DNA of 64,000 bases, taken from assembly GCF_032380675.1 (NCBI RefSeq), contig NZ_JAWDIX010000004.1, positions 95,560 through 159,559 on the forward strand, written 5' to 3'. Under the pieces are notes generated by a model. It saw nothing but the letters and a program-made list of their open reading frames with translations, was not told the DNA's origin and searched no databases. Below are positions 2,718 to 54,982 of the stretch, piece by piece. The translations under genes were made by a program, and so were the position numbers. How positions within the stretch are numbered: position 1 is the stretch's first letter; each line of letters starts with the position of its first letter. The DNA comes from Anaerolentibacter hominis (GTDB lineage: Bacteria; Bacillota; Clostridia; Lachnospirales; Lachnospiraceae).

Positions 2718-4670
2718 ATGGAGAAGAAACCGTATTATATTACTACAGCAATTGCGTATACGTCCGGCAAACCACACATCGGAAACACGTATGAGGCGGT
2801 TCTGGCGGACAGTATTGCCAGATATAAAAGGGCACAGGGGTATGATGTGTTCTTTCAGACCGGGACGGACGAGCATGGACAGAAGATTGAGCAGAAAGCA
2901 GAGAAAGCAGGGGTCACGCCTCAGGAGTTTGTAGATCAGGTCTCAGAGACGATACGGACAATCTGGGATATGATGGATACATCCTATGATAAATTCATCC
3001 GGACCACCGATCCTTATCATGAAAAACAGGTGCAGAAGATATTTAAAAAGCTCTATGAAAAAGGTGATATTTACAAGGGATACTATGAGGGGATGTACTG
3101 TACGCCCTGTGAATCCTTCTTTACGGCTTCCCAGCTGGCAGACGGCAAATGTCCGGACTGCGGAAGAGAATGCCAGCCGGCCAAGGAAGAAGCCTATTTT
3201 CTGAAACTGAGCAACTATACGGACCGGCTGATCAAACATATTGAGGAACATCCGGAATTCATCCAGCCGGAGTCCCGCAAGAACGAAATGATGAATAACT
3301 TCATCAAAGCGGGCCTTCAGGATCTGTGTGTGTCCCGTACCTCGTTCAAGTGGGGAATCCCGGTGGATTTTGATGATAAGCATGTAGTCTATGTGTGGAT
3401 TGACGCTCTGAATAACTATATTACAGGTCTGGGCTATGATGTTGACGGCAATCACGGTGAGAACTTTAAGAAGTTCTGGCCTGCGGACCTGCAGTTAATC
3501 GGCAAGGATATTCTCCGCTTTCATACGATCTACTGGCCGATTATGCTGATGGCGCTGGATCTGCCCCTTCCAAAACAGATTTTTGGACATCCCTGGCTTC
3601 TTCAGGGAGAAGGCAAAATGAGCAAATCCAAGGGAAATGTGATCTATGCGGATGATCTGGTCCGTATGTTCGGAGTGGACGCCGTCCGCTATTTCGTGCT
3701 TCATGAAATGCCTTTTGACAATGACGGAACGATTACCTGGGAGCTGATGGTAGAGCGGATGAATTCCGACCTGGCCAATACTCTGGGCAATCTGGTAAAC
3801 CGGACAATCTCAATGACCAATAAGTATTTTGACGGCGTGGTAACACGTACCGGTGAAGCGGAACCTGTGGATGAAGAGTTAAAGGCTCTGACTCTGGAGA
3901 CGCCGAAGAAGGTAGAAGCCAAGATGAATTCTCTGCGGGTGGCGGATGCTATCTCTGAGATATTCACGCTGTTTAAACGCTGTAATAAATATATCGACGA
4001 GACAATGCCATGGGCGCTCGCCAAGGATGAGGCTAAGAAAGACCGCCTGGCGGAAGTTCTCTATAATCTGACGGAGAGCATTACAGCCGGGACCAGCCTG
4101 CTGGCTTCCTTTATGCCGGAAACCGCGCAGAAGATTTTCACCCAGCTGAATACTGCCTGCCGCGGCCTGGATCAGATGGATCAATACGGGCTGTATCCGT
4201 CGGGAAATAAAGTGACGGACAAACCGGAAATCCTGTTTGCCCGTTTGGATCTGAATGAGGTGCTGGCCCAGGTCGAAGAACTGAAGGCAGACCAGGCAAA
4301 ACCGGAAGAACCGGAAGAACACGTAATTGATCTGGAGCCGAAGGCGGAGATTGCCTATGATGACTTTGCCGCCATGCAGTTTCAGGTAGGAGAGATTATT
4401 GCCTGTGAGGAAGTGAAGAAGTCGAAGAAACTTCTGTGCTCCCAGGTAAGAATCGGCAGTCAGGTTAAGCAGATCGTATCCGGCATCAAGGCGTTTTATA
4501 AACCGGAGGAAATGGTTGGCAAGAAGGTTATGGTTCTGGTGAACTTAAAACCTGCCAAGCTGGCCGGGGTTCTTTCCGAGGGGATGCTCTTATGTGCAGA
4601 AGATGAAAATGGCAATCTGGCTCTGGTTGTTCCCGAGAAGGACATGCCGTCCGGAGCGGAGATCTGTTAA
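2718..4670 (+). CDS. metG: methionine--tRNA ligase
   Basis: class I aaRS motifs (PHIGN, KMSKS), Zn-knuckle Cys pairs, C-terminal tRNA-binding EMAP-like domain. Confidence 0.95.
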   Translation: MEKKPYYITTAIAYTSGKPHIGNTYEAVLADSIARYKRAQGYDVFFQTGTDEHGQKIEQKAEKAGVTPQEFVDQVSETIRTIWDMMDTSYDKFIRTTDPYHEKQVQKIFKKLYEKGDIYKGYYEGMYCTPCESFFTASQLADGKCPDCGRECQPAKEEAYFLKLSNYTDRLIKHIEEHPEFIQPESRKNEMMNNFIKAGLQDLCVSRTSFKWGIPVDFDDKHVVYVWIDALNNYITGLGYDVDGNHGENFKKFWPADLQLIGKDILRFHTIYWPIMLMALDLPLPKQIFGHPWLLQGEGKMSKSKGNVIYADDLVRMFGVDAVRYFVLHEMPFDNDGTITWELMVERMNSDLANTLGNLVNRTISMTNKYFDGVVTRTGEAEPVDEELKALTLETPKKVEAKMNSLRVADAISEIFTLFKRCNKYIDETMPWALAKDEAKKDRLAEVLYNLTESITAGTSLLASFMPETAQKIFTQLNTACRGLDQMDQYGLYPSGNKVTDKPEILFARLDLNEVLAQVEELKADQAKPEEPEEHVIDLEPKAEIAYDDFAAMQFQVGEIIACEEVKKSKKLLCSQVRIGSQVKQIVSGIKAFYKPEEMVGKKVMVLVNLKPAKLAGVLSEGMLLCAEDENGNLALVVPEKDMPSGAEIC

Positions 4671-6470: not shown

Positions 6471-6938
6471 ATGAAAGACGATATCTACTATATGAAAGAA
6501 GCGCTGAAACAGGCCAGGAAGGCGGGTGATCTGCTGGAGGTTCCAATCGGCTGCGTGATCGTTCATGAAGATAAAATAATAGCAAGGGGCTATAATCAGC
6601 GGAATACGAAGAAGAGCACGCTGGCTCACGCGGAGATCCTGGCAATCGGAAAAGCAAGTAAAAAGCTGGGGGACTGGAGGCTGGAAGAGTGCACCATGTA
6701 TGTGACGCTGGAACCATGTCAGATGTGCGCGGGGGCAATCATTCAGGCCAGAATACCAAGGGTTGTTATCGGATGTATGAATCCTAAGGCCGGCTGCTGC
6801 GGGTCTATATTAAACCTGCTCGAAATGGAACAATTCAACCATCAGTCGGAAGTGACCAGAGGAGTGCTGGAAGAAGAGTGCAGCGGGCTATTGAAGGAAT
6901 TCTTCAGGAAGCTGAGGAAGGGAAAGAGCAGCAAATAA
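6471..6938 (+). CDS. tadA: tRNA adenosine(34) deaminase
   Basis: CDA-fold zinc motifs HAEI...PCQMCAGA. Confidence 0.9.
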   Translation: MKDDIYYMKEALKQARKAGDLLEVPIGCVIVHEDKIIARGYNQRNTKKSTLAHAEILAIGKASKKLGDWRLEECTMYVTLEPCQMCAGAIIQARIPRVVIGCMNPKAGCCGSILNLLEMEQFNHQSEVTRGVLEEECSGLLKEFFRKLRKGKSSK

Positions 6939-7133: not shown

Positions 7134-7399
7134 TTCCGTGCAGCCGGGGAGATAGCGGTGCCCTGTACCTGCAATCCGCTACAGCAGGGGTGATATTCTG
7201 CCGAGGGTCTTTTTTTGTGGGGCCGGCCTTTATAAGTGATGTTGACGTTTGGGTCTTGCGCAACAGGAATTCGTGAACCGTGTCAGGTCAGGAATGGAGC
7301 AGCACTAAGCGGAACCTTCTGTGTGCCGTAAGGGTGCCTGAGCCGAGTTAACTGTAAAGGTATCGCCTATGAAAGGGATTCGAAGCAGAATGCACGGAA
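7134..7399 (+). ncRNA. ffs: signal recognition particle RNA, long Bacillus/Clostridium type (about 265 nt)
   Basis: domain IV core GUGUCAGGUCAGGAAUGGAGCAGCAC...GUGUGCCGUAAGGGUGCC closely matches the conserved 4.5S helix-8 region; terminal helix CCGUGCAG/CUGCACGG closes the molecule; Alu-like 5' segment GGGGAGAUAGCGGUGCCCUGUACC; tadA-ffs synteny is common in Firmicutes. Confidence 0.7.
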
Positions 7400-7554
7400 T
7401 TTAAATTAAATAGATTTATCATGGAAGTAGATAAGACTCCCACCTCAATAGGTGGTGAGTAAATAACAAATACGTCTTGGTGGGAGCTCAGTCTCCTTCC
7501 GAGATAAAGCCTCCGGCGGCTCGCAGCAAGTACGCCGAGGCGTACTTGAAAAAA

Positions 7555-7583
7555 CTCTGCGCATTGATGTGCAGAGTTTTTTC
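7555..7583 (+). terminator. rho-independent terminator
   Basis: CTCTGCGC-attgatgt-GCAGAG followed by TTTTTT. Confidence 0.65.
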
Positions 7584-7741
7584 TTTATATAAGATGGCTC
7601 TCTCCGTGTGCGGCGCCAGTCGTTTCAGAGAGTTTAGGAGAAAAAAGTTGTCTGATAACTGGTTCTAATCAGAAGGATTAATTGAAAGAATATTCTGAAA
7701 ACTGATGTAAATAGATAAAATGAATTATTTTAGAAAAATGT

Positions 7742-7770
7742 GTTGACAAATAAAAAGCACTATACTATAA
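7742..7770 (+). promoter_or_regulatory. perfect consensus sigma-70 promoter TTGACA-17-TATAAT
   Basis: exact -35 and -10 hexamers with 17-nt spacer; no CDS downstream on either strand for about 650 nt. Confidence 0.6.
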
Positions 7771-7776
7771 TCAAGA

Positions 7777-8424
7777 TAACAAAGAACAAACACTTAATAA
7801 CAACAGAGTTGAAGTAAAAGAAAGGTAAGGTGATTCCCTTGGCAACGATAGATGAACATTTAAAAGGTGAATCAATGAAGTCAGAAAGAATGGCCTTCGC
7901 AAAGTAAAACATCTCGTATATAACAATATACAAAAGTCGGAGTGACAAGATGGATTTTAAGAAGGACTCATTGATTCATCTAATTAAAAAAAGAGGTTTC
8001 ATTATTCCGGTAAGAGAGTAGATTTAACATAGACGTTTCCCTATGTTAATGAAGTTAGTGTGAGAGTCGTTGATAAACGATTGATGGCAGAGCCGTTAGT
8101 AAGGTCAATGACAGAACATTAAGTGGATAAGGACAAATTCAATTAAGGAGTTTGGACAGAAGATCAGAGATTAGAAACTCATAAGAACACTTTGGAAGTG
8201 ATGTGAATCAGGACTGAAGAGCAGAAGATGATGTGAAGATTGAAGGATTAAAAGACTCTCATAAAACAGTAAGATATGGAAAAGAGGAATAATAAAATCA
8301 GTAAGGAAACAACATTCATAGAATGGCCTTAAAAATAATCCTCCGGCTTATTAAATATAGTACAATTAAATAAACTGAATAAAAAACTAAAAGCCCTCCG
8401 TCAAACACACGGAGGGCTTCTTTT
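7777..8424 (+). ncRNA. candidate large non-coding RNA: purine-rich, ORF-free transcript unit, unclassified
   Basis: bounded by a consensus promoter (7742-7770) and a strong hairpin-plus-T-run terminator (8391-8424); no + strand ORF of at least 60 aa; + strand very A/G-rich with few C; internal local hairpins. Confidence 0.3.
8391..8424. terminator. bidirectional rho-independent terminator
   Basis: AAGCCCTCCG-tcaaacaca-CGGAGGGCTT flanked by A-run 5' and T-run 3'; also serves the convergent minus-strand gene. Confidence 0.8.
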
Positions 8425-8442
8425 CGCTCGTTTACCATCTGC

Positions 8443-9165
8443 TCAGGCAGCCCCATGCTGTTTGCGATTGGGCAGATGTTCCATGATCCTGTTTCTGAAA
8501 TGAAACAGCAGAAGAACCCCGATTAATTCCAGAACAGCCAGAACTCCGGCAAGGATAAAATGTCCCTGCAGTAAAAGCCTTCCGCAGAATACAAAAATAA
8601 AAATACTAGGGAAACTGCCGCAGGCAACTGCCAGAGTGAACTCCTTTAAAGTGATTTCTGTCTTTGCGGCGATATGAGGGATCATGCCATTGGGAACCAT
8701 TGGAATCAGACAGGCCAGAAATACGGTATATGCCGGATCTTTTGTATGTAAGAGCATGGTTTCGAACCGGCCGTTGCTCTTGGCCGGAAACATTCCGTCG
8801 ATAAGGCTGCCCAGTTTGCGGGAAAGTAAAAAGACAAACAAATTAGCAGCTATATGGCTGATCAGACACAGCAGTGTGCCGATTATGACACCGTATAACA
8901 GCCCGGCGACTATATGTATCGGAGAACCCGGAAAGACAACGGTTACAATTTGCAGAAATTGCAGCAGCGCCAGAAATATATAGCCAAGATTTCCGGCATT
9001 TCTCAGATAATTTTCAATTTCCTGTTCATTACCGTGCTCAAGCAGCGGAATCAGATCCGGAGCAACAATGGACACGAAATAAACGACAGCGGCCATAATC
9101 ACAATAATAGTCACTGCCAGAAGCAGATAACGGACAAACTCCATCTTTGTTTTTTTCTTCTTCAT
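8443..9165 (-). CDS. TVP38/TMEM64 (DedA-related) family membrane protein
   Basis: multi-TM ORF with a VFPGSPIHIVAGLLYG motif; start set at MKKKKTKMEF (ATG 9165) preceded by AGGGGG SD, not the upstream track start. Confidence 0.65.
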   Translation of the reverse strand: MKKKKTKMEFVRYLLLAVTIIVIMAAVVYFVSIVAPDLIPLLEHGNEQEIENYLRNAGNLGYIFLALLQFLQIVTVVFPGSPIHIVAGLLYGVIIGTLLCLISHIAANLFVFLLSRKLGSLIDGMFPAKSNGRFETMLLHTKDPAYTVFLACLIPMVPNGMIPHIAAKTEITLKEFTLAVACGSFPSIFIFVFCGRLLLQGHFILAGVLAVLELIGVLLLFHFRNRIMEHLPNRKQHGAA

Positions 9166-12658: not shown

Positions 12659-14920
12659 ATGAATTTGAAAGAAGAAATTTATATAATCGAAGGTATGACC
12701 TGTGCCGCCTGCTCCAGCGGCGTGGAACGGGCCACCAGGAAGATAGACGGAGTAGAGCGCAGCGATGTGAATCTGACAACCGGCAGAATGACCATTGTGT
12801 ATGATGATTCGAAAGTAGATGAAGAACTGATCAAGGCAAAAGTGGTAAAGGCCGGATTTGGTATTCATAAATATGAGGCGCCGGGGGCTGATGAAAAGAA
12901 GCTGACAGCCATGGAGCAAGAAAAAGAGCATAAGAATTTTAAGAGACGGCTGATCACCGCTATAGTATTTTCAGTGGGACTGCTCTATCTTGCTATGGGG
13001 CACATGCTGCCCTTTGAGCTGCCGGTACCGGATATTATTCATATGAATACGCACCCGCTGAATTTTGCTTTGCTGCAGCTGGTCTTAACAATCCCGGTTC
13101 TCTACTGCGGACGGCAGTTTTATCTGATTGGATTTAAGACACTGTTCCACGGGAATCCCAATATGGATTCTTTGGTAGCAGTGGGAACAAGCAGTGCATT
13201 TATTTACAGTCTGGTTCAGACGATTCTGATTCCATCCAATCCAATGAATGCACATCATCTTTATTATGAATCGGCGGCGGTTGTGGTCACACTTGTCATG
13301 CTGGGCAAATATTTGGAGAGCAACAGCCAGAGAAAGACATCCGGAGCTATTCAGAAGCTGATGGAGCTCACTCCGGAGACTGCGATTGTGGAAAAAGACG
13401 GAAAAGAAGTCACTGTTTCGATCAGTGAGCTGAGAAAAGGCGACATTATTGTCATTAAGCCAGGTTCACGGGTACCCCAGGATGGTATCGTCGTACGAGG
13501 CGGGAGCAGCGTGGACGAATCCATGCTGACCGGTGAGAGTATACCTGTGGAAAAGAGCGCGGGAGACGAAGTGATCGGCGGAAGCATGAATTACAATGGG
13601 GTTATGTATGTGGAAGTCAGCCGTACCGGTGAAGACACTACCCTTGCAAAGATCATAAAGCTGATTGAGGATGCGCAGGGCAAAAAGGCCCCTATTTCCA
13701 AGATTGCAGATAAAGTGGCCGGCTACTTTGTGCCGGCGGTTATGATCATTGCCCTGGCAGCTTCCGTAATATGGCTGCTGCTTGGCTATGATCTGGCCTT
13801 TGTGCTGAAAATATTTGTTTCTGTTCTGGTTATCGCCTGCCCCTGTGCCCTGGGGCTTGCCACTCCTACGGCAATTATGGTAGGAACCGGACTTGGCGCC
13901 AGCAATGGTATTTTAATTAAGAGCGGAGAAGCACTGGAAACAACACACAAGGTTGATACCGTTGTCCTGGATAAGACCGGTACGATTACGGAGGGTAAAC
14001 CTCAGGTAGTGGATATTGTAAGCCAGGATATGGAGCCGGATGAACTTCTCCAGCTTGCTGCCGCCGTTGAGGCCGGGTCGGAGCATCCTCTGGCGCAGGC
14101 TATTGTAGCAAGAGCCAGAGAAAAACGGGAGGACGGCGTTCTTTATCCTGCGGAAGAGTTTGAAAGCATTACCGGTATGGGCGTACAGGCAAAGGTTCAG
14201 GACCATATGGTGCTGGTGGGCAATATAAAGCTGCTGGAGGGCCATAATGGGATTGAAGAGGCCGGTGAATATAAAGAGCAGGCCGCGGTTTTGGCAGGCC
14301 GGGGACAGACGCCGATGTTTGTTTCTGTGGATCAGAAGGTTCAGGGTATCATTAGTGTGGCCGATACAGTAAAGGAAACAAGTATCGAGGCGATTGAGAA
14401 AATGAAGGGCCTGGGCATTGAAGTATATATGCTGACCGGTGATAACAAGCTGACGGCAGATTACATCGGACGGCAGGTTAAAGTGGACGGCGTTATCTCC
14501 GAGGTACTCCCGGGAGACAAGGCGCAGGTAGTTGCGGACTTGCAGGCGAAGGGTAAAAAAGTTATGATGGTGGGAGACGGTATCAATGATGCACCGGCGC
14601 TGGTGCAGGCGGATATCGGAACAGCCATTGGAAACGGCAGCGACGTGGCGATAGAGTCCAGTGATATTGTGCTGATGAAATCAGATCTTCGGGATGTCTA
14701 TAAGTCAATTAAACTGAGTAAGCTGACAATCCGCAATATCAAGCAGAACCTGTTTTGGGCGTTCTTTTATAATACGATCGGTATTCCGGTAGCGGCCGGG
14801 CTTCTGTTCCCGATAAACGGAATGCTGCTGAGTCCTATGATCGGCGGATTTGCTATGTCGCTGAGTTCGATCTGCGTTGTGGGCAATGCACTTCGTCTGC
14901 GCACAAAGAAGCTGGATTAA
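12659..14920 (+). CDS. copA: copper-translocating P1B-type ATPase
   Basis: N-terminal HMA domain GMTCAACSSG, TM CPC motif (ACPCALGLATP), DKTGTIT phosphorylation site, GDGINDAP hinge. Confidence 0.92.
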   Translation: MNLKEEIYIIEGMTCAACSSGVERATRKIDGVERSDVNLTTGRMTIVYDDSKVDEELIKAKVVKAGFGIHKYEAPGADEKKLTAMEQEKEHKNFKRRLITAIVFSVGLLYLAMGHMLPFELPVPDIIHMNTHPLNFALLQLVLTIPVLYCGRQFYLIGFKTLFHGNPNMDSLVAVGTSSAFIYSLVQTILIPSNPMNAHHLYYESAAVVVTLVMLGKYLESNSQRKTSGAIQKLMELTPETAIVEKDGKEVTVSISELRKGDIIVIKPGSRVPQDGIVVRGGSSVDESMLTGESIPVEKSAGDEVIGGSMNYNGVMYVEVSRTGEDTTLAKIIKLIEDAQGKKAPISKIADKVAGYFVPAVMIIALAASVIWLLLGYDLAFVLKIFVSVLVIACPCALGLATPTAIMVGTGLGASNGILIKSGEALETTHKVDTVVLDKTGTITEGKPQVVDIVSQDMEPDELLQLAAAVEAGSEHPLAQAIVARAREKREDGVLYPAEEFESITGMGVQAKVQDHMVLVGNIKLLEGHNGIEEAGEYKEQAAVLAGRGQTPMFVSVDQKVQGIISVADTVKETSIEAIEKMKGLGIEVYMLTGDNKLTADYIGRQVKVDGVISEVLPGDKAQVVADLQAKGKKVMMVGDGINDAPALVQADIGTAIGNGSDVAIESSDIVLMKSDLRDVYKSIKLSKLTIRNIKQNLFWAFFYNTIGIPVAAGLLFPINGMLLSPMIGGFAMSLSSICVVGNALRLRTKKLD

Positions 14921-15261: not shown

Positions 15262-15459
15262 ATGACAGTATTAAATGTGAAGGAAATGGCGTGTGAGCAT
15301 TGCGTAAAGAGGATTACAGACGTCTTAACAGCCGCAGGCCTTAAGTTTGAGGTGAATCTGGCCGATAAGACCGTGAGCGTGGACGGGGATGAGGCGGCGG
15401 TTAAGCTGGCGATCTCCGAGATGGACGATATTGGTTTTACTGCACAGGCAGCGAACTAG
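15262..15459 (+). CDS. copZ: copper chaperone CopZ (HMA domain)
   Basis: 65-aa ferredoxin-like HMA protein with MACEHC metal-binding motif; AGGAGGA SD. Confidence 0.85.
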   Translation: MTVLNVKEMACEHCVKRITDVLTAAGLKFEVNLADKTVSVDGDEAAVKLAISEMDDIGFTAQAAN

Positions 15460-17310: not shown

Positions 17311-17483
17311 ATCCCCGTAACCCTTCTCTTATGTAAACTATAGTCCGGGATAAATCCCGCAGTAAAGAACAGTATAACATAGTTTGGGGACGTTAAAAAC
17401 CCTAATAGCTCCGTCAAATAACAGAAAATATAAAATAAGTTTATACTTCATGAAATGTTTATAAAGTTTCCCGACAGCCGGTG

Positions 17484-17705
17484 GAAATATGGTATAATAT
17501 TCGAAAGCCAAGCCATGCAAGACCAGGAGCCGGAAGAATCCTATGCTTGCATAAAGGATTCTTCCGGCTCCTGGTCTTATAGGGCGCAGCCCGAAACCGA
17601 GCCGACCGGAGGAAGGCGAGGTTGCATGGCTTGCGGATAGCAGACAGGGCGCAGCCCGAAACCGAGCCGACCGGAGGAAGGCGAGGTTGCATGGCTTGCA
17701 GCGGC
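17484..17705 (+). promoter_or_regulatory. extended -10 promoter (TGgTATAAT) plus about 200-nt highly structured leader upstream of the two-component system
   Basis: perfect 24-bp hairpin (17519-17578); 12-nt strand CAAGCCATGCAA (17509-17520) complementary to TTGCATGGCTTG in each copy of a 54-nt tandem direct repeat (17581-17634, 17646-17699). Confidence 0.5.
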
Positions 17706-17736
17706 ATACTAATTTACTTCGACCTGGAGGTTTTTC

Positions 17737-23517: not shown

Positions 23518-23530
23518 GAAAAAGGCTATT

Positions 23531-23566
23531 GGACACAGAGTGATAAAAACACTCTGTGTCTTTTTC
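23531..23566 (+). terminator. rho-independent terminator after ABC operon
   Basis: GACACAGAGTG-ataaaaa-CACTCTGTGTC followed by TTTTTC. Confidence 0.8.
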
Positions 23567-23645
23567 TTTGCTTAGGAAGATTCTAAACTTAACTTAGTAA
23601 CAAAAAGACCTGGTGGGGATGCGTACTTCTTTTATTGACAGATGC

Positions 23646-23690
23646 ACACGACTGTGGTAGTGTAGAGATAGATAAACTACTGGAGTCGTG
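23646..23690 (+). promoter_or_regulatory. imperfect 45-bp dyad, candidate BlaI/MecI-type operator upstream of the repressor gene
   Basis: ACACGACTgtggTAG...CTActggAGTCGTGT, with 11 of 15 positions symmetric, between a TTGACA-like -35 and the blaI-like start. Confidence 0.45.
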
Positions 23691-23704
23691 TAAAGGAGAA
23701 TGAG

Positions 23705-24064
23705 ATGGATATTAAGCTGTTTGATTCTGAATTAAAAGTTATGTCTGTGCTCTGGAATGAGGGAGACACTACCGCCAAGCATATTTCTGATGTGCTGAAA
23801 GAGGAGACAGGCTGGAATATGAATACGACCTATACACTGATTAAAAGATGCATTAAGAAGGGGGCAATCAGCCGCAGCGAGCCTAATTTCATGTGTCATG
23901 CGCTGGTGCCCAAGGAAGCGGTACAGGAGGCGGAGACGAATGAACTGATTAACAAGGTGTATGATGGATCTGCTGATAAATTATTTGCGGCGCTGCTGGG
24001 GAGAAAGAAACTCTCACCGGAACAGATTGAGAAACTGAAACAGATTGTTGACGGTCTGGAATAA
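23705..24064 (+). CDS. BlaI/MecI/CopY-family transcriptional repressor
   Basis: 119-aa winged-helix penicillinase-repressor fold (N-terminal LxxxELxVMxxLW motif). Confidence 0.85.
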   Translation: MDIKLFDSELKVMSVLWNEGDTTAKHISDVLKEETGWNMNTTYTLIKRCIKKGAISRSEPNFMCHALVPKEAVQEAETNELINKVYDGSADKLFAALLGRKKLSPEQIEKLKQIVDGLE

Positions 24065-24118
24065 GAGGACAAGGCTGGTTAAAACGGACAGCGTAAATGC
24101 TTCGGAATGGAGGGAAAT

Positions 24119-40712: not shown

Positions 40713-40751
40713 AAAAGGGGATGCTGCGGCAGGGCAGCATCCCCTTTTTTT
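40711..40751. terminator. bidirectional terminator
   Basis: GGGGATGCTGC-ggcaggg-CAGCATCCCC followed by TTTTTTT. Confidence 0.8.
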
Positions 40752-42660
40752 ATCCTTCCAGTTCTTCCCACTCTGAGAAAAGCGTCTCCAGCGTGGAAGT
40801 GATTTCTTCTTTCCGGTTATTTAGTTCGATTAGCCTGGCAGGATTCGTATAATTTTCTTCCAGTGACAGCGCCGCGTCCAGCTTTTCGTTTTCCTCTTCC
40901 AGAGCCTGAATTTCCTCTTCAATTTTTTTCAGCCGGTTTTCGATTCTCCGTCTTGCGGCCTGCTCTTCCTTTTTCTGCTGCCAGGTCAGCTTTCCGTCCG
41001 GCTCCCTGGCATCTGTCCTGCACGAGGCTTCCTGATTAAGCAGTCTTGCCTCCAGCTCCTCTTTCTTTTCCAGATAGTAGTCATAGTTACCCAGATAATT
41101 AATCAGCTGCGTCTGTGTCAGATCCAGGATGCGGGTGGCCGTTTTATTGATAAAATACCTGTCGTGGGATACATAGAGAACCGTACCGGTATAGTGATTC
41201 AGCGCATTCTCCAGTATTTCCTTTGACGTGATATCCAGATGGTTGGTCGGCTCATCCAGAATGAGCAGGTTTGCCTCGGAAAGCATCAGCTTGGCCAGAG
41301 ATACGCGCCCTCTCTCCCCGCCGCTTAAATCTCCGATCCGCTTGAATACATCGTCGCCGGTAAAGAGAAATGAGGCCAGCAGATTGCGGATCTTTGTATT
41401 ATCAAGCCAGGGATACTCGTCCTGAATTTCATCAAAGACAGTCTTATCCATATTGAGAACGTGATGCTCCTGATCGTAATAACCGATTTTAACCTTGGAA
41501 CCCAGGCGGATATCCCCTGCATCCGCGGGCAGCAGACCATTTATTATTTTTAATATTGTGGTTTTGCCGGTGCCGTTTTTACCGATGATCGCTACCTTTT
41601 CCTCGCGTTTAATGGAGAATGATAAGTCCCAGAACAAGGTCTGACTGCCGAAAGCTTTTGCCAGCCCTTCCACATCCAGAACATCGGTTCCGCTGACGAT
41701 GGATGGAGTCAGCTCTATGGATATCTGCGCTTCCTCGGTAACGGGCTTATCCAGCACGTCCATTTTGTTCAGCAGCTTTTCGCGGCTTTCCGCCCGCCGG
41801 ATGGATTTTTCCCGGTTGAAGGAGCGCAGCTTTGCTATCACTTCCTCCTGATGGCGGATTTCCCTCTGCTGATTCAGGTATTGTTTAATCTGAGCGTCCC
41901 GAAGCATCGCTTTCTTTTTGGCGTAGTCGGTGTAATTTCCTATATAACAGGAAGCACTGCACCGCTCAATTTCCACAACCTTGCCAACTACCTTATCCAG
42001 AAAATACCGGTCATGAGATACAATGACAACCGTACCTTTATAATTCAGAAGATAATTTTCCAGCCAGGCGATGGACACGAGATCCAGATGGTTGGTCGGC
42101 TCGTCCAGAAGGATGATATCCGGCCTGGAAAGGAGAAGCTTACCCAGGAAAACCCTGGTTTTCTGACCGCCGGAAAGAGTAGAAACAGATTTGGTAAATT
42201 CCTCTTCCTCAAACCCCAGTCCTTTAAGAACCCCGGTTACTTCACTTTTATACGCATAACCGTTCTGCTGTTCAAATTCATGGTTCAATCTGGCGTACCG
42301 ATCCAGCGCATCCTTAAGTTCCGGCCCGGAGAGGGAGGCCATCTCGTTTTCCAATGTGCGGATACGGTCATTCAATGCAATAACGTCCGCCTTAACGGAA
42401 AGAAGTTCCTCATAGATGGACCGTTCTGATGTCAGATCCTGATGCTGGGCCAGATAACCGATGGTGGTATCCTTGGCTAAAATCACTTCCCCTGCATCCG
42501 CAGCCAGTTCGCCCATGATGATTTTAAGAAGAGTCGATTTGCCGGCCCCGTTCATTCCGATAACGGCGGCCTTTTCCCGTTCATTTATATGAAAAGATAT
42601 ATTCTCTAAAATTTTGTCTGTTCCAAACGATTTACATATCCCCTGGCATGCAAGTATCAT
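40750..42660 (-). CDS. ABC-F family ATPase (two ABC domains, no TMD)
   Basis: duplicated Walker A (GMNGAGKST / GKNGTGKTT), duplicated signature LSGGQ/LSGGE, inter-domain linker and C-terminal coiled coil. Confidence 0.85.
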   Translation of the reverse strand: MILACQGICKSFGTDKILENISFHINEREKAAVIGMNGAGKSTLLKIIMGELAADAGEVILAKDTTIGYLAQHQDLTSERSIYEELLSVKADVIALNDRIRTLENEMASLSGPELKDALDRYARLNHEFEQQNGYAYKSEVTGVLKGLGFEEEEFTKSVSTLSGGQKTRVFLGKLLLSRPDIILLDEPTNHLDLVSIAWLENYLLNYKGTVVIVSHDRYFLDKVVGKVVEIERCSASCYIGNYTDYAKKKAMLRDAQIKQYLNQQREIRHQEEVIAKLRSFNREKSIRRAESREKLLNKMDVLDKPVTEEAQISIELTPSIVSGTDVLDVEGLAKAFGSQTLFWDLSFSIKREEKVAIIGKNGTGKTTILKIINGLLPADAGDIRLGSKVKIGYYDQEHHVLNMDKTVFDEIQDEYPWLDNTKIRNLLASFLFTGDDVFKRIGDLSGGERGRVSLAKLMLSEANLLILDEPTNHLDITSKEILENALNHYTGTVLYVSHDRYFINKTATRILDLTQTQLINYLGNYDYYLEKKEELEARLLNQEASCRTDAREPDGKLTWQQKKEEQAARRRIENRLKKIEEEIQALEEENEKLDAALSLEENYTNPARLIELNNRKEEITSTLETLFSEWEELEG

Positions 42661-42775
42661 ATCGTCACCTGTTATTCTTAATTTACGCGCGGCCGGCCCG
42701 GATGCAGGTTTCCTCCGTCCGAAACAGCCGCTGTTCTGTGCATTCGTACTTGATTATACTGGCAAAAATACAGGC

Positions 42776-42811
42776 TGTCAAATTGACAACAGTATTCCTT
42801 TCTTATATAAT
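42776..42811 (+). promoter_or_regulatory. rex promoter TTGACA-17-TATAAT with TGTCAA-a-TTGACA palindrome overlapping -35
   Basis: exact hexamers with 17-nt spacer; 6-bp inverted arms centred on the -35. Confidence 0.55.
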
Positions 42812-42903: not shown

Positions 42904-43548
42904 ATGAGCAGTAAATATATTTCTTTGGCAGTGATTCGGAGACTGCCCACCTATTATAGGTATCTGGGCAGATTAATGGAGAATAATGTGGAACGGATTT
43001 CCTCCAAGGAACTGAGCGAGGAACTGCAGATGACTGCTTCCCAGATCCGTCAGGATCTGAATAATTTTGGCGGGTTTGGCCAGCAGGGATATGGTTATAA
43101 TGTAGAAAATTTATATAACGAGATTGGAAAAATCCTGGGCGTGGATCAGCCGCACAATATGATCATTATTGGAGCCGGAAACCTGGGCCAGGCGCTTGCA
43201 AATTATACAACTTTTGAGAAAAGGAACTTTAAAATAATCGGTATTTTTGATGTGAATCCTAAATTTATCGGAATGACGATAAGAGGGGTTGAGATCAGAG
43301 ACGTGGACGAGCTGGAGGAATTTATCAAGAGCAATGAGGTCCATATGGCGGCTCTTACGATTCCGAAGAATCATGCGCCGAAGGTGGCTTCTGACATTGT
43401 GAAATGGGGCGTTAAGTCAATCTGGAATTTTGCGCCCGTGGATTTGAAACTGCCGTCAGATGTACTGGTAGAGAATGTCCATCTGCTGGACAGTCTGATG
43501 CGTTTGTCCTACAGTCTGAAGGCACTGGAGGAAGAGAAGAGAGTATAA
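42904..43548 (+). CDS. rex: redox-sensing transcriptional repressor Rex
   Basis: N-terminal winged helix (VIRRLPTYYRYL) plus Rossmann NADH-binding domain (GAGNLG). Confidence 0.9.
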   Translation: MSSKYISLAVIRRLPTYYRYLGRLMENNVERISSKELSEELQMTASQIRQDLNNFGGFGQQGYGYNVENLYNEIGKILGVDQPHNMIIIGAGNLGQALANYTTFEKRNFKIIGIFDVNPKFIGMTIRGVEIRDVDELEEFIKSNEVHMAALTIPKNHAPKVASDIVKWGVKSIWNFAPVDLKLPSDVLVENVHLLDSLMRLSYSLKALEEEKRV

Positions 43549-48311: not shown

Positions 48312-48509
48312 AGAATAGCTAAGCAGAGCGAAGCTATTCGCTACTTCTCAAAAAGCGAAGCGTTTGAGAAGGGGCCCGATCTTTTTATGAAGTGAGGAAC
48401 GAACGTAATAAAGAATAGCTAAGCAGAGTGAAGCTATTCGCTACTTCTCAAAAAGCGAAGCGTTTGAGAAGGGCCCCGTTTTTTTTTATGAAGTGAGGAA
48501 CGAACGTAA
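48309..48509 (+). repeat. tandem direct repeat, 2 x about 100 bp, unit begins with a copy of the last about 25 nt of corC
   Basis: units 48309-48408 and 48409-48509 near-identical; each holds hairpin AGCGAAgctaTTCGCT, 9-bp hairpin CTTCTCAAA...TTTGAGAAG, a GGGCCC element plus T-run; unit ends GAACGAACGTAATAAAGAATAGC echo corC 3' end GACGACGAAGAATAAAGAATAGC. Confidence 0.7.
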
Positions 48510-48515
48510 TAAAAA

Positions 48516-48552
48516 AGCCAGAAAAAAAGCAGCGGTAGGGGCCGCTGCTTTT
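48516..48552 (+). terminator. rho-independent terminator
   Basis: AAAAAAGCAGCGG-tagggg-CCGCTGCTTTTTT. Confidence 0.75.
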
Positions 48553-48753
48553 TTCCTGGTAACTAAATACCAAAGTGTATAATAGGGTGGGAGTAGAAAG
48601 TGTTTATCCACTATCTAAACTTAAATATAGCCCCCAAATGTGTTCTCCCTGTGACTAAAATATGAACATTTTCTAAACTGAGCCCCGCATAATCGGAAGC
48701 GGAAGATGGTCGGAAAGCTAGCTTTCCAGACATCTTTCGCTTTTGATTATATG

Positions 48754-48891
48754 TGGCGAAGCCACGAAGCGAGCATCCCGTCAGGGATGCGTAGCTTAGC
48801 GAGGCGGAAAGCCCGCAAAACAGAGGCGAAGCCCGTTTAACATTGGCGAAGCCACGAAGCGAGCATCCCGTCAGGGATGCGTAGCTTAGCG
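48754..48891 (+). repeat. second direct-repeat family: two 48-bp copies 90 bp apart
   Basis: TGGCGAAGCCACGAAGCGAGCATCCCGTCAGGGATGCGTAGCTTAGCG at 48754-48801 and 48844-48891; contains 7-bp hairpin GCATCCC-gtca-GGGATGC and GCGAAGC motifs. Confidence 0.65.
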
Positions 48892-48929
48892 GGGCGGTAA
48901 GCCTTGCTATGGCGACTTACAGCACTGTC

Positions 48930-54114: not shown

Positions 54115-54262
54115 AAATTAATGTATTAAAATGGGGAGAAGAAATAAAAAACAAAAAATCATCTTATCTAACAAGCTAGTTATATTGTAAACAACAAATA
54201 TGAGGAAAATATGACTTCATTGAATACAATTTGTGAACAATTGAGTTCATAAATTGTACTAT

Positions 54263-54400
54263 AGACGCAATAGGAATAGGGTGGAAAAACAGAGCTTTGC
54301 ACTGGGAGCATACCATATGTTGATATGTGAGCGAGATTATATATCAACATATGGTATAGAGCGTAGCGCCGCAGGCGCTTTTGCCGCCCTGTTCCTATTG
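54263..54400 (+). ncRNA. candidate small structured RNA/element (three nested helices), unclassified
   Basis: 14-bp outer helix CAATAGGAATAGGG / CCCTGTTCCTATTG (one G-U) enclosing a perfect 14-bp hairpin CCATATGTTGATAT...ATATCAACATATGG and a GC hairpin AGCGCCgcaGGCGCT plus TTT; upstream TTGTGA...TACTAT promoter-like hexamers. Confidence 0.35.
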
Positions 54401-54499: not shown

Positions 54500-54982
54500 A
54501 TGAAAATTACCATATTGTGTGTGGGGAAGATAAAAGAAGCTTACTTTACAGGAGGAATCCGGGAATATGAAAAGAGGCTGAGCCGTTACTGCAAACTGGA
54601 TATTATCGAGGTAGCAGATGAGAAAACTCCGGATGGAGCGAGTGAGGCCCAGGAGACTGCGATCAGAAGAAAAGAGGGAGAACGCCTGTTAAAGCAGCTT
54701 AAGGATGAGAACGCCTATGTGATAGCGCTTGCTATCGAGGGGAAACAGAGGGATTCTCTGGAGTTTGCAAGGCTTATAGATGAGCTGGGAATCAGAGGTG
54801 TCAGCCATCTGGTGTTTATCATAGGAGGTTCGCTGGGGCTTGACGAGGCGGTGCTTGCACGGGCGGACGAGAAATTAAGTTTTTCCAATATGACATTTCC
54901 CCATCAGCTGATGCGGGTGATTCTGCTGGAACAGATCTATCGGGGCTATCGGATTATAAAAGGGGAGCCCTACCATAAATAG
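54500..54982 (+). CDS. rlmH: 23S rRNA (pseudouridine1915-N3)-methyltransferase
   Basis: SPOUT-class 160-aa protein, MKITILCVGKIKE N-terminus. Confidence 0.85.
   Translation: MKITILCVGKIKEAYFTGGIREYEKRLSRYCKLDIIEVADEKTPDGASEAQETAIRRKEGERLLKQLKDENAYVIALAIEGKQRDSLEFARLIDELGIRGVSHLVFIIGGSLGLDEAVLARADEKLSFSNMTFPHQLMRVILLEQIYRGYRIIKGEPYHK

Follow-up and report, generated by a model that had tools for sequence, protein, structure and literature searches.

By definition, the ornate large RNAs OLE, ROOL and GOLLD are deeply conserved and have an elaborate structure with covariation (PMC12286853, PMC11332333, PMC12265935). RNAIII of Staphylococcus aureus, with 514 nucleotides (nt), a 26-amino-acid (aa) peptide (hld) encoded in its 5' region and 14 stem-loops, and the 386-nt VR-RNA of Clostridium perfringens together demonstrate that a layout of tiny peptide plus structured body exists in Firmicutes (PMC12612679). 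Here we analyzed 64,000 nt of the genome of the human-gut bacterium Anaerolentibacter hominis (Lachnospiraceae; contig NZ_JAWDIX010000004.1, positions 95,560 to 159,559; hereafter the window, numbered from its first letter), in which a unit of some 640-650 nt free of long open reading frames (ORFs) lies between the signal recognition particle (SRP) RNA and a convergent TVP38-family gene. An earlier reading made from the letters alone (the sequence-only reading) had put the unit forward as a candidate large non-coding RNA (ncRNA) in the size class of OLE or ROOL. We tentatively favor a lineage-specific (orphan), independently transcribed RNA of approximately 640-650 nt, acting as a regulatory or dual-function transcript, as set out below.

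A perfect TTGACA-17-TATAAT promoter had been placed at 7742-7770; it is indeed there, one base further to the right, at 7743-7771. Counting sites with no or one mismatch to this consensus, the window has nine where shuffles predict 0.33; the remaining eight are found 65-105 nt 5' of long ORFs, 32 nt 5' of the SRP RNA or about 150 nt 5' of an mreB-like start. Since near-consensus sites are over-represented and stand before genes or the SRP RNA, a consensus match predicts a working promoter well in this genome, and the site at 7743-7771 is, with high probability, a genuine sigma-A promoter that reads into approximately 640 nt. The SRP RNA promoter is likewise preceded by an A/T-rich tract (ATTATTTTA) similar to the one directly upstream of the unit's -35 hexamer. 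A decayed SRP RNA copy or a duplicated SRP promoter was rejected, as a 14-nt AT-rich match was the only similarity found. Elsewhere in the window, a pair of perfect consensus promoters points in opposite directions from adjoining positions, with 42753-42781 on the minus strand facing a gene at 40750-42660 and 42783-42811 on the plus strand facing a divergent one at 42904-43548; the distance to the gene start is 93 nt in both cases.

The sequence behind the promoter lacks the marks of a protein-coding gene. The claim that the + strand holds no ORF of at least 60 aa proved correct even at a threshold of 30 aa (7772 to 8424), the longest stop-free + strand segment being 37 codons. Stops had also been called frequent in all frames; they are present in each, with counts only at the random expectation (15, 20 and 24 in the three + frames, where composition predicts 17.9). 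Because each + frame contains all three kinds of stop, an alternative genetic code was rejected; composition hardly varies with codon position, and a three-base periodicity is not clearly visible. For homology we compared 80 tadA loci of other Lachnospiraceae, among the matches listed, and 4 loci of the nearest TVP38 homologue. Six-frame tblastn against the 84 related loci gave no match, and neither did the six-frame translations against Pfam at E<=10, the longest open segment (37 aa) against 1.84 billion representative proteins (HMMER), or the three + frames, concatenated, against 5.8 billion proteins at E<=10; no ORF or short ORF (sORF) of the region occurs in a collection of 15 billion proteins. 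Homology to a frameshifted protein gene was therefore found by none of tblastn, Pfam, HMMER or the protein collections, and a pseudogene was rejected, there being no frame with a stop deficit and no protein homology. The decayed gene remnant that the sequence-only reading had named as an alternative thus gains no positive support from frames, proteins or Pfam; it survives below only as a transcribed relic, a rival of lower rank. The RNA is neither the messenger RNA (mRNA) of a normal gene nor a recognizable gene remnant.

The composition of the unit is A 43, T 24, G 21 and C 12% (64% purine, 33% GC). Its A/G-rich, C-poor + strand, already noted by the sequence-only reading, is real and represents the upper end of a general + strand trend, with the other ORF-free gaps of the window showing 51-64% purine on the same strand. 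Purine and GC skew favor the + strand as the transcribed sense strand. A repeated box was likewise present as described (AGAATGGCCTT at 7887 and 8320, 433 nt apart) and is at chance level: exact repeats of at least 11 nt arose in 94 of 500 dinucleotide shuffles. The repeated GAATGGCCTT box was accordingly dismissed as a functional element, being a chance-level match with no two-box pattern in viral contigs. Several other identities were considered and rejected. A CsrA sponge of the CsrB/RsmZ type (GGA 13 against 12.1 expected, AAGGA 5 against 2.4) and an Hfq-binding (ARN)n or C-rich seed RNA both have motif counts that are not above dinucleotide shuffles. For a replication origin, there is only a single DnaA-like box and no skew switch. 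A mobile element, miniature inverted-repeat transposable element, island scar or phage or plasmid remnant is contradicted by the lack of a second copy of the unit in the window, of significant terminal or direct repeats and of any phage or plasmid blastn match.

Strong translation signals at the 5' end had been overlooked by the earlier reader. A Shine-Dalgarno (SD)-like sequence, AGAAAGGTAAGGTGAT, can pair with the 16S 3' tail (a generic Firmicute sequence, assumed). The energy of this duplex, -17.9 kcal/mol, is lower than the best value among 19 real genes of the window (-13.4; their mean is -8.5) and makes the site the fourth strongest among 42,656 sampled. The SD-like sequence precedes a putative 22-codon frame (sORF1) whose start is 68 nt from the -10 hexamer, 65-105 nt being typical of real genes in the window; an internal ATG of sORF1 at 7875 has an AAGGTGA SD of its own. 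The tetramer AACA, clustered in the leader, occurs 14 times in the unit against 6.5 expected, and none of 500 shuffles reached 14. A second putative frame (sORF2) has an SD-like site of -8.1 kcal/mol and an ATG (7950) inside a predicted helix. The sORF1 peptide is absent from the protein collection, and that of sORF2 has no homologue among the 1.84 billion representative proteins. Both peptides lack a hydrophobic helix and Cys, and no modification, receptor or export genes are adjacent. A type I toxin-antitoxin was rejected: the + strand peptides are hydrophilic, and hydrophobic minus-strand ORFs (7760-7948 and others), which result from the pyrimidine-rich composition of that strand, are TTG-started and have neither SD nor promoter. 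Combined, the 5' signals suggest a start of translation at 7839, present or past, and they put a tiny-peptide or dual-function RNA, and likewise the stump of a lost gene, on a par with a pure ncRNA in plausibility. A metagenome contig (OBXO01003777.1) ends with a recurrence of one stretch of sORF2 (LIHLIKKRGFI; minus strand, 4016-4045; MLIHLIKKRGFIQKRELFIK followed by a stop); this copy has no SD and no flanking DNA similarity, and we put it down to chance, the pattern being AT-rich.

Predicted RNA structure is unusual locally and ordinary globally. The folding z of the whole unit is -5.9, much of it contributed by the terminator, and drops to -2.96 on the + and -1.54 on the minus strand once the terminator is removed; 20 windows of 608 nt across the 64 kb gave a mean z of -2.2 (standard deviation 2.2), with 5 of the 20 at or below -2.96. 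The best local structure of up to 80 nt, a hairpin at 8053-8125, had an equal in only 1 of 300 dinucleotide-shuffled versions of the whole unit, and the best of up to 130 nt (7998-8128, -37.3 kcal/mol) had none among 300. The 8053-8125 hairpin collapses from -26.7 kcal/mol on the + to -8.1 kcal/mol on the minus strand, and this collapse, together with its dependence on G-U pairs, makes it an RNA-level feature of the + strand rather than a DNA palindrome. A second local hairpin, for which the sequence-only reading had given the arms ACATAG and CTATGT, is real and extends to 9 bp (8024-8032/8041-8049); 9 bp was reached by 8 of 500 shuffles, which is mildly unusual, and it folds equally on both strands. 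The predicted 5' domain (7865-7981) has -31.5 kcal/mol and a z of -5.4 for a stretch picked after the fact, its minus strand being nearly equal (-27.7). The domain architecture as a whole (7865-7981 and 7995-8299) is a prediction from one sequence, without covariation support.

Other folding signals were seen across the window. The strongest z, -8.2, belongs to the 608-nt stretch that begins at 54200. At 54268-54400, nested inverted repeats, with 22-nt arms (86% complementary) around a perfect 17-bp hairpin (54310-54326/54341-54357), make up a palindromic element of roughly 135 nt, which lies in an ORF-free gap 5' of an rlmH-like gene (54500-54982) and has no Rfam match. The 608-nt window from 48000 has a z of -5.5, and the ORF-free gap at 48312-48929 carries a sub-threshold Rfam match to Enterococcus-1 RNA (48325-48464, + strand; 29.8 bits against a gathering score of 71.4, E=0.049). 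Windows from 23200 (z -4.6) and 17000 (z -4.5) span the ORF-free gaps 23518-24106 and 17311-17736, which have no Rfam match.

At the 3' end, the hairpin with U-tract described by the sequence-only reading is present, with a stem of 11 rather than 10 bp; it is bidirectional and primarily that of the TVP38 gene. On the + strand the stem (8391-8401/8409-8419) comprises 11 bp with 7 G-C pairs and a 7-nt loop (-19.7 kcal/mol), followed by CTTTTC only. The minus-strand version is stronger (13 bp, -23.3 kcal/mol, then T6) and lies 22 nt after the TVP38 stop at 8443. Being accounted for by the TVP38 gene, the terminator is not independent evidence for a + strand unit.

Known RNA families and relatives of the unit were sought broadly. 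Rfam 15, applied to the 64 kb at the gathering score and also at E<=0.05, returned the SRP RNA (7136-7397) as the only significant match, and a sensitive scan of 7380-8480 (1.1 kb) at E<=10 yielded only noise driven by hairpins and terminators, far below every gathering score. OLE, ROOL, GOLLD, raiA, HEARO, 6S, RNase P, transfer-messenger RNA (tmRNA), RNAIII and SR1 were thereby rejected as families, none giving a covariance-model match (tmRNA also none by ARAGORN), and the confident Rfam match that would have assigned the unit to a known family does not appear even at E<=10. Comparison of 7590-8440 with the 80 Lachnospiraceae tadA loci by blastn and nhmmer gave no match, so that the proposed blastn comparison with related Lachnospiraceae turned up no relative. 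Nothing similar was seen in the 80 tadA and 4 TVP38 loci, where gene order differs. The unit occurs only once in the window, and blastn against phage and plasmid collections gave no match. In metagenomes, an exact 22-mer had 0 matches in contigs, a degenerate pattern of ten sORF2 residues had 2, which is about chance by our own estimate from the information content of the pattern and came with no flanking similarity, and a scan with the hairpin pattern found only 2 unrelated viral sites. A. hominis is a phylogenetic singleton in these collections, the next TadA being 80-83% identical and the next TVP38 46% identical in another gene context, and conservation of the unit is consequently not assessable there.

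Table 1. Features of the unit and of its immediate surroundings (positions within the window)
Feature	Position	Strand	Remarks
A/T-rich tract gaattattttagaaaaatgtg, possibly UP-element-like	7722-7742	+	directly 5' of the -35 hexamer
Perfect sigma-70-type promoter, TTGACA-17 nt-TATAAT	7743-7771	+	12/12 match; predicted RNA start ~7778
CA/A-rich, weakly structured 5' leader	7778-7818	+	five AACA in the first 28 nt (7778, 7785, 7789, 7799, 7802)
Very strong SD-like sequence AGAAAGGTAAGGTGAT	7819-7834	+	14 bp to the 16S 3' tail, with a 2-nt bulge
sORF1 (putative), 22 codons (MATIDEHLKGESMKSERMAFAK)	7839-7907	+	TTG start 4 nt after the SD-like sequence; TAA stop
Predicted 5' domain	7865-7981	+	14-bp helix 7865-7878/7968-7981 burying ATGs 7875 and 7950; base-pair probabilities 0.8-0.96
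sORF2 (putative), 23 codons (MDFKKDSLIHLIKKRGFIIPVRE)	7950-8021	+	ATG start, TAG stop; GGAG at 7939-7942, 7-nt spacing; same frame as sORF1
Predicted central domain	7995-8299	+	closing helices 7995-8019/8255-8299; base-pair probabilities 0.9-0.98
Perfect 9-bp hairpin TTAACATAG/CTATGTTAA, loop ACGTTTCC	8024-8049	+	stem 8024-8032/8041-8049; -8.2 kcal/mol
Long three-tier hairpin	8053-8125	+	73 nt, 25 bp including six G-U pairs; purine-rich internal loops; -26.7 kcal/mol
Bidirectional intrinsic terminator, common to the unit and the convergent TVP38 gene	8391-8425	both	+ side weaker, CUUUUC tail
TVP38/TMEM64-family membrane protein gene, convergent neighbor	8443-9165	-	PF09335; 100% identical to an Anaerolentibacter hominis protein; its terminator closes the unit

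The gene order at this locus is tatD, rsmA, tadA, SRP RNA, orphan unit, TVP38 (convergent), flavin reductase, aroK and murA. TadA, encoded at 6471-6938 (+), is 100% identical to the NCBI protein of A. hominis, and the PF09335 match bears out the earlier naming of the convergent neighbor as a TVP38-family gene. The reservation that OLE would have a same-strand oapA, which is lacking here, was well placed: neither oapA nor oapB adjoins the unit, with TVP38 converging from downstream and the SRP RNA and tadA lying upstream. The SRP RNA itself (7136-7397; Rfam RF01854, 203.7 bits) is followed by a trailer of about 190 nt that ends in a 16-bp terminator (7548-7583). Within this trailer (7398-7590), CTCCCACC (7437-7444) has two alternative potential partners, GGTGGTGAG (7451-7459) and GGTGGGAG (7480-7487); the trailer also holds a GTACGCCGAGGCGTAC hairpin and may be a 3' extension of the precursor. 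ARAGORN found no tRNA or tmRNA in the 64-kb window. In nearly all loci examined from other Lachnospiraceae, a different gene order follows the SRP RNA (with HD-domain, RelA_SpoT and 776-aa genes, among others), and the best syntenic relatives (L049 and L063) have ordinary genes in the corresponding interval. A Lachnospiraceae metagenome-assembled genome (MAG), SIG319 (locus L048, 13149-13850), has an SRP RNA (13221-13481), a terminator and a perfect TTGACA-17-TATAAT promoter (13580-13608) that drives a tetrahydrofolate (THF) riboswitch (13630-13725, 83 bits) and an ORF ending after about 20 codons (MKKLKETKTLTVVAMLTAIG followed by a stop), apparently a truncated folT-like gene, after which come about 600 nt without a long ORF. 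In another related Lachnospiraceae MAG (locus L051), Rfam SECIS_4 (56.8 bits, 15368-15405) lies 5' of the SRP RNA, and about 1.5 kb 3' of it is free of ORFs of at least 100 aa.

How might such a unit work? Judging from its sequence and from where the other consensus promoters of the window stand, transcription would start near 7778 from the full-consensus sigma-A promoter, and the RNA would run to the bidirectional terminator at 8391-8419, whose short U-tract makes some read-through antisense to TVP38 probable. Its first 130 nt would offer an efficient-looking start for a 22-codon peptide, with an unstructured CA-rich leader, a very strong SD and a TTG; a second, 23-codon frame would come next with its start buried in a predicted helix, and the middle of the RNA would form the long, + strand-specific hairpin. 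The role we propose is that of a non-conserved regulatory or dual-function RNA with the layout of RNAIII and VR-RNA, in which one or two tiny 5' peptides would be joined to a structured body acting via base-pairing or protein binding. This reading ranks first among those we considered and is plausible, if short of probable. A more specific version, a new lineage-restricted RNA of about 650 nt that is a highly expressed, RNAIII-type dual-function transcript with one or two 22-23-aa peptides and a structured body (the 7998-8128 hairpin), and that has no database relative because its genus has been sampled only once, we regard as unlikely in that full form. Several results weigh against a regulatory or dual-function RNA. 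No homologue was found in any collection searched, and hence there is no covariation and no proof of selection. The global fold is no better than the genomic background, the terminator at 8391-8419 is explained by the neighboring gene, and GGA, ARN and C-rich motifs are not enriched beyond composition. No convincing target pairing was found in the window, where the best duplex with 48 translation-initiation regions has -37.9 against a null mean of -36.1 kcal/mol. The sORF signals, finally, were judged after the fact, and each is singly of modest significance only.

Next in rank stands a transcribed relic, in which 7743-7841 would be the surviving 5' end of a gene lost by rearrangement or deletion beside the SRP RNA and the remaining 500 nt or so would be functionless. 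The complete, strong gene start that nevertheless meets a stop after only 22 codons speaks for such a history, as do the sharing of one frame by sORF1 and sORF2 with a single TAA between them, the variable gene order 3' of the SRP RNA in almost every Lachnospiraceae locus examined, the AT-richness of the region and its lack of conservation, and the same succession in L048 of SRP RNA, terminator, perfect promoter, THF riboswitch and truncated folT-like ORF. It is harder to reconcile with the frames, none of which retains a stop-codon deficit. Given the lack of protein or Pfam similarity, any decay would have had to happen long ago, or the body would have had to be exchanged; even so, the promoter still matches at 12 of 12 positions, and a strand-specific 25-bp hairpin is unexpected in junk DNA. 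We consider the relic somewhat unlikely. If the 5' signals instead belong to a living small-protein mRNA, the unit would serve only one or two 22-23-aa peptides and the rest would be a long 3' untranslated region (UTR). The SD-like sites of -17.9 and -8.1 kcal/mol are correctly spaced to TTG 7839 and ATG 7950, the leader is CA-rich and the distance from promoter to start is typical of genes here; the peptides, however, have no homologue and no features of known peptide classes, ATG 7950 is predicted to be base-paired, and a 370-nt 3' UTR containing a significant hairpin would have no explanation. We consider this reading quite unlikely.

The sequence-only reading had itself raised the idea of a large ncRNA with a high degree of structure, either of the OLE/ROOL/GOLLD kind or founding a new class of that sort. 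In its favor are the size of 600-650 nt, the unit's own promoter, and a local structure that is significant and has nested long-range helices whose predicted pairing probabilities are high. Against these stand the absence of any Rfam match at E<=10, a GC content of 33% with a global z ordinary for this genome, and the absence of relatives in 80 Lachnospiraceae loci, phages, plasmids and metagenome pattern scans, whereas the known ornate RNAs are extensively conserved (PMC12286853, PMC11332333). The likeness to OLE- or ROOL-type RNAs is thus not supported (no Rfam match, an ordinary global fold with a z of -2.96, a chance-level box and no homologue in the collections searched), and we hold membership of that class to be improbable. 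What stands of the original proposal of a large ncRNA candidate is a very probable promoter, about 640 nt without a gene or recognizable remnant, and a stretch (7998-8128) that folds above shuffles on the + strand only; what falls is the ornate-RNA class. The most improbable of the five readings is an antisense or transcriptional-interference device, whose promoter would send polymerases through a weak + side terminator into TVP38 and lower its expression. The convergent gene arrangement would suit it, and so would a + strand U-tract of four U (CUUUUC) against U6 on the minus strand, but the + strand hairpin is still strong at -19.7 kcal/mol and a 620-nt spacer would be needless.

We conclude that the candidate is legitimate but unprovable, a likely species-specific transcript outside the known families with nothing yet marking a new class; for a single-genome candidate without relatives, sequence analysis alone cannot raise it to a structured-RNA family. 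If expressed and functional, the orphan RNA would join a very short list of known large RNAs with a regulatory or dual function in gut Lachnospiraceae and would open a way into the post-transcriptional control of a genus that has hardly been studied. As a relic, it would show consensus promoters surviving beside a rearrangement-prone SRP RNA locus. Under either reading, the OLE/ROOL/GOLLD class is not extended.

Compared with OLE, ROOL and GOLLD, the unit shares a size class of about 600 nt, a Firmicute host and the lack of a normal protein product; it differs in having no covariance-model match, no oapA or oapB neighbor and no conservation, and in its low GC and ordinary predicted stability. 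With the THF-riboswitch/folT relic of L048 it has in common the same spot just 3' of an SRP RNA and terminator, a perfect consensus promoter and an ORF stopping after about 20 codons, but there the lost gene is recognizable by its riboswitch and FolT-like N-terminus, whereas in the A. hominis unit nothing recognizable is left. Nicolas et al. (2012) are said to describe species-specific independent intergenic transcripts, and such transcripts reportedly emerged from tiling-array and RNA-seq studies of Bacillus subtilis and other Firmicutes. The unit resembles these in its own sigma-A promoter, intrinsic terminator, lack of an ORF, length of hundreds of nt and lack of conservation beyond the species, with the difference that they are defined by measured expression while expression here is read from sequence signals. 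Finally, in relation to RNAIII, VR-RNA and SR1 of Bacillus subtilis, the unit is longer and more A-rich. Neither its sequence nor any covariance model relates it to RNAIII, SR1 or any Rfam family; quorum-sensing and two-component systems are absent from its neighborhood, and C-rich loop motifs are not enriched. What it appears to share with them is the plan of the molecule: an independent promoter-to-terminator unit of several hundred nt, delimited here by consensus signals and with a shared terminator; a tiny putative 5' reading frame with a good predicted ribosome-binding site ahead of a long, predicted non-coding stem-loop body; and possible intramolecular pairing of the 5' and 3' parts over the ribosome-binding site (PMC12612679).

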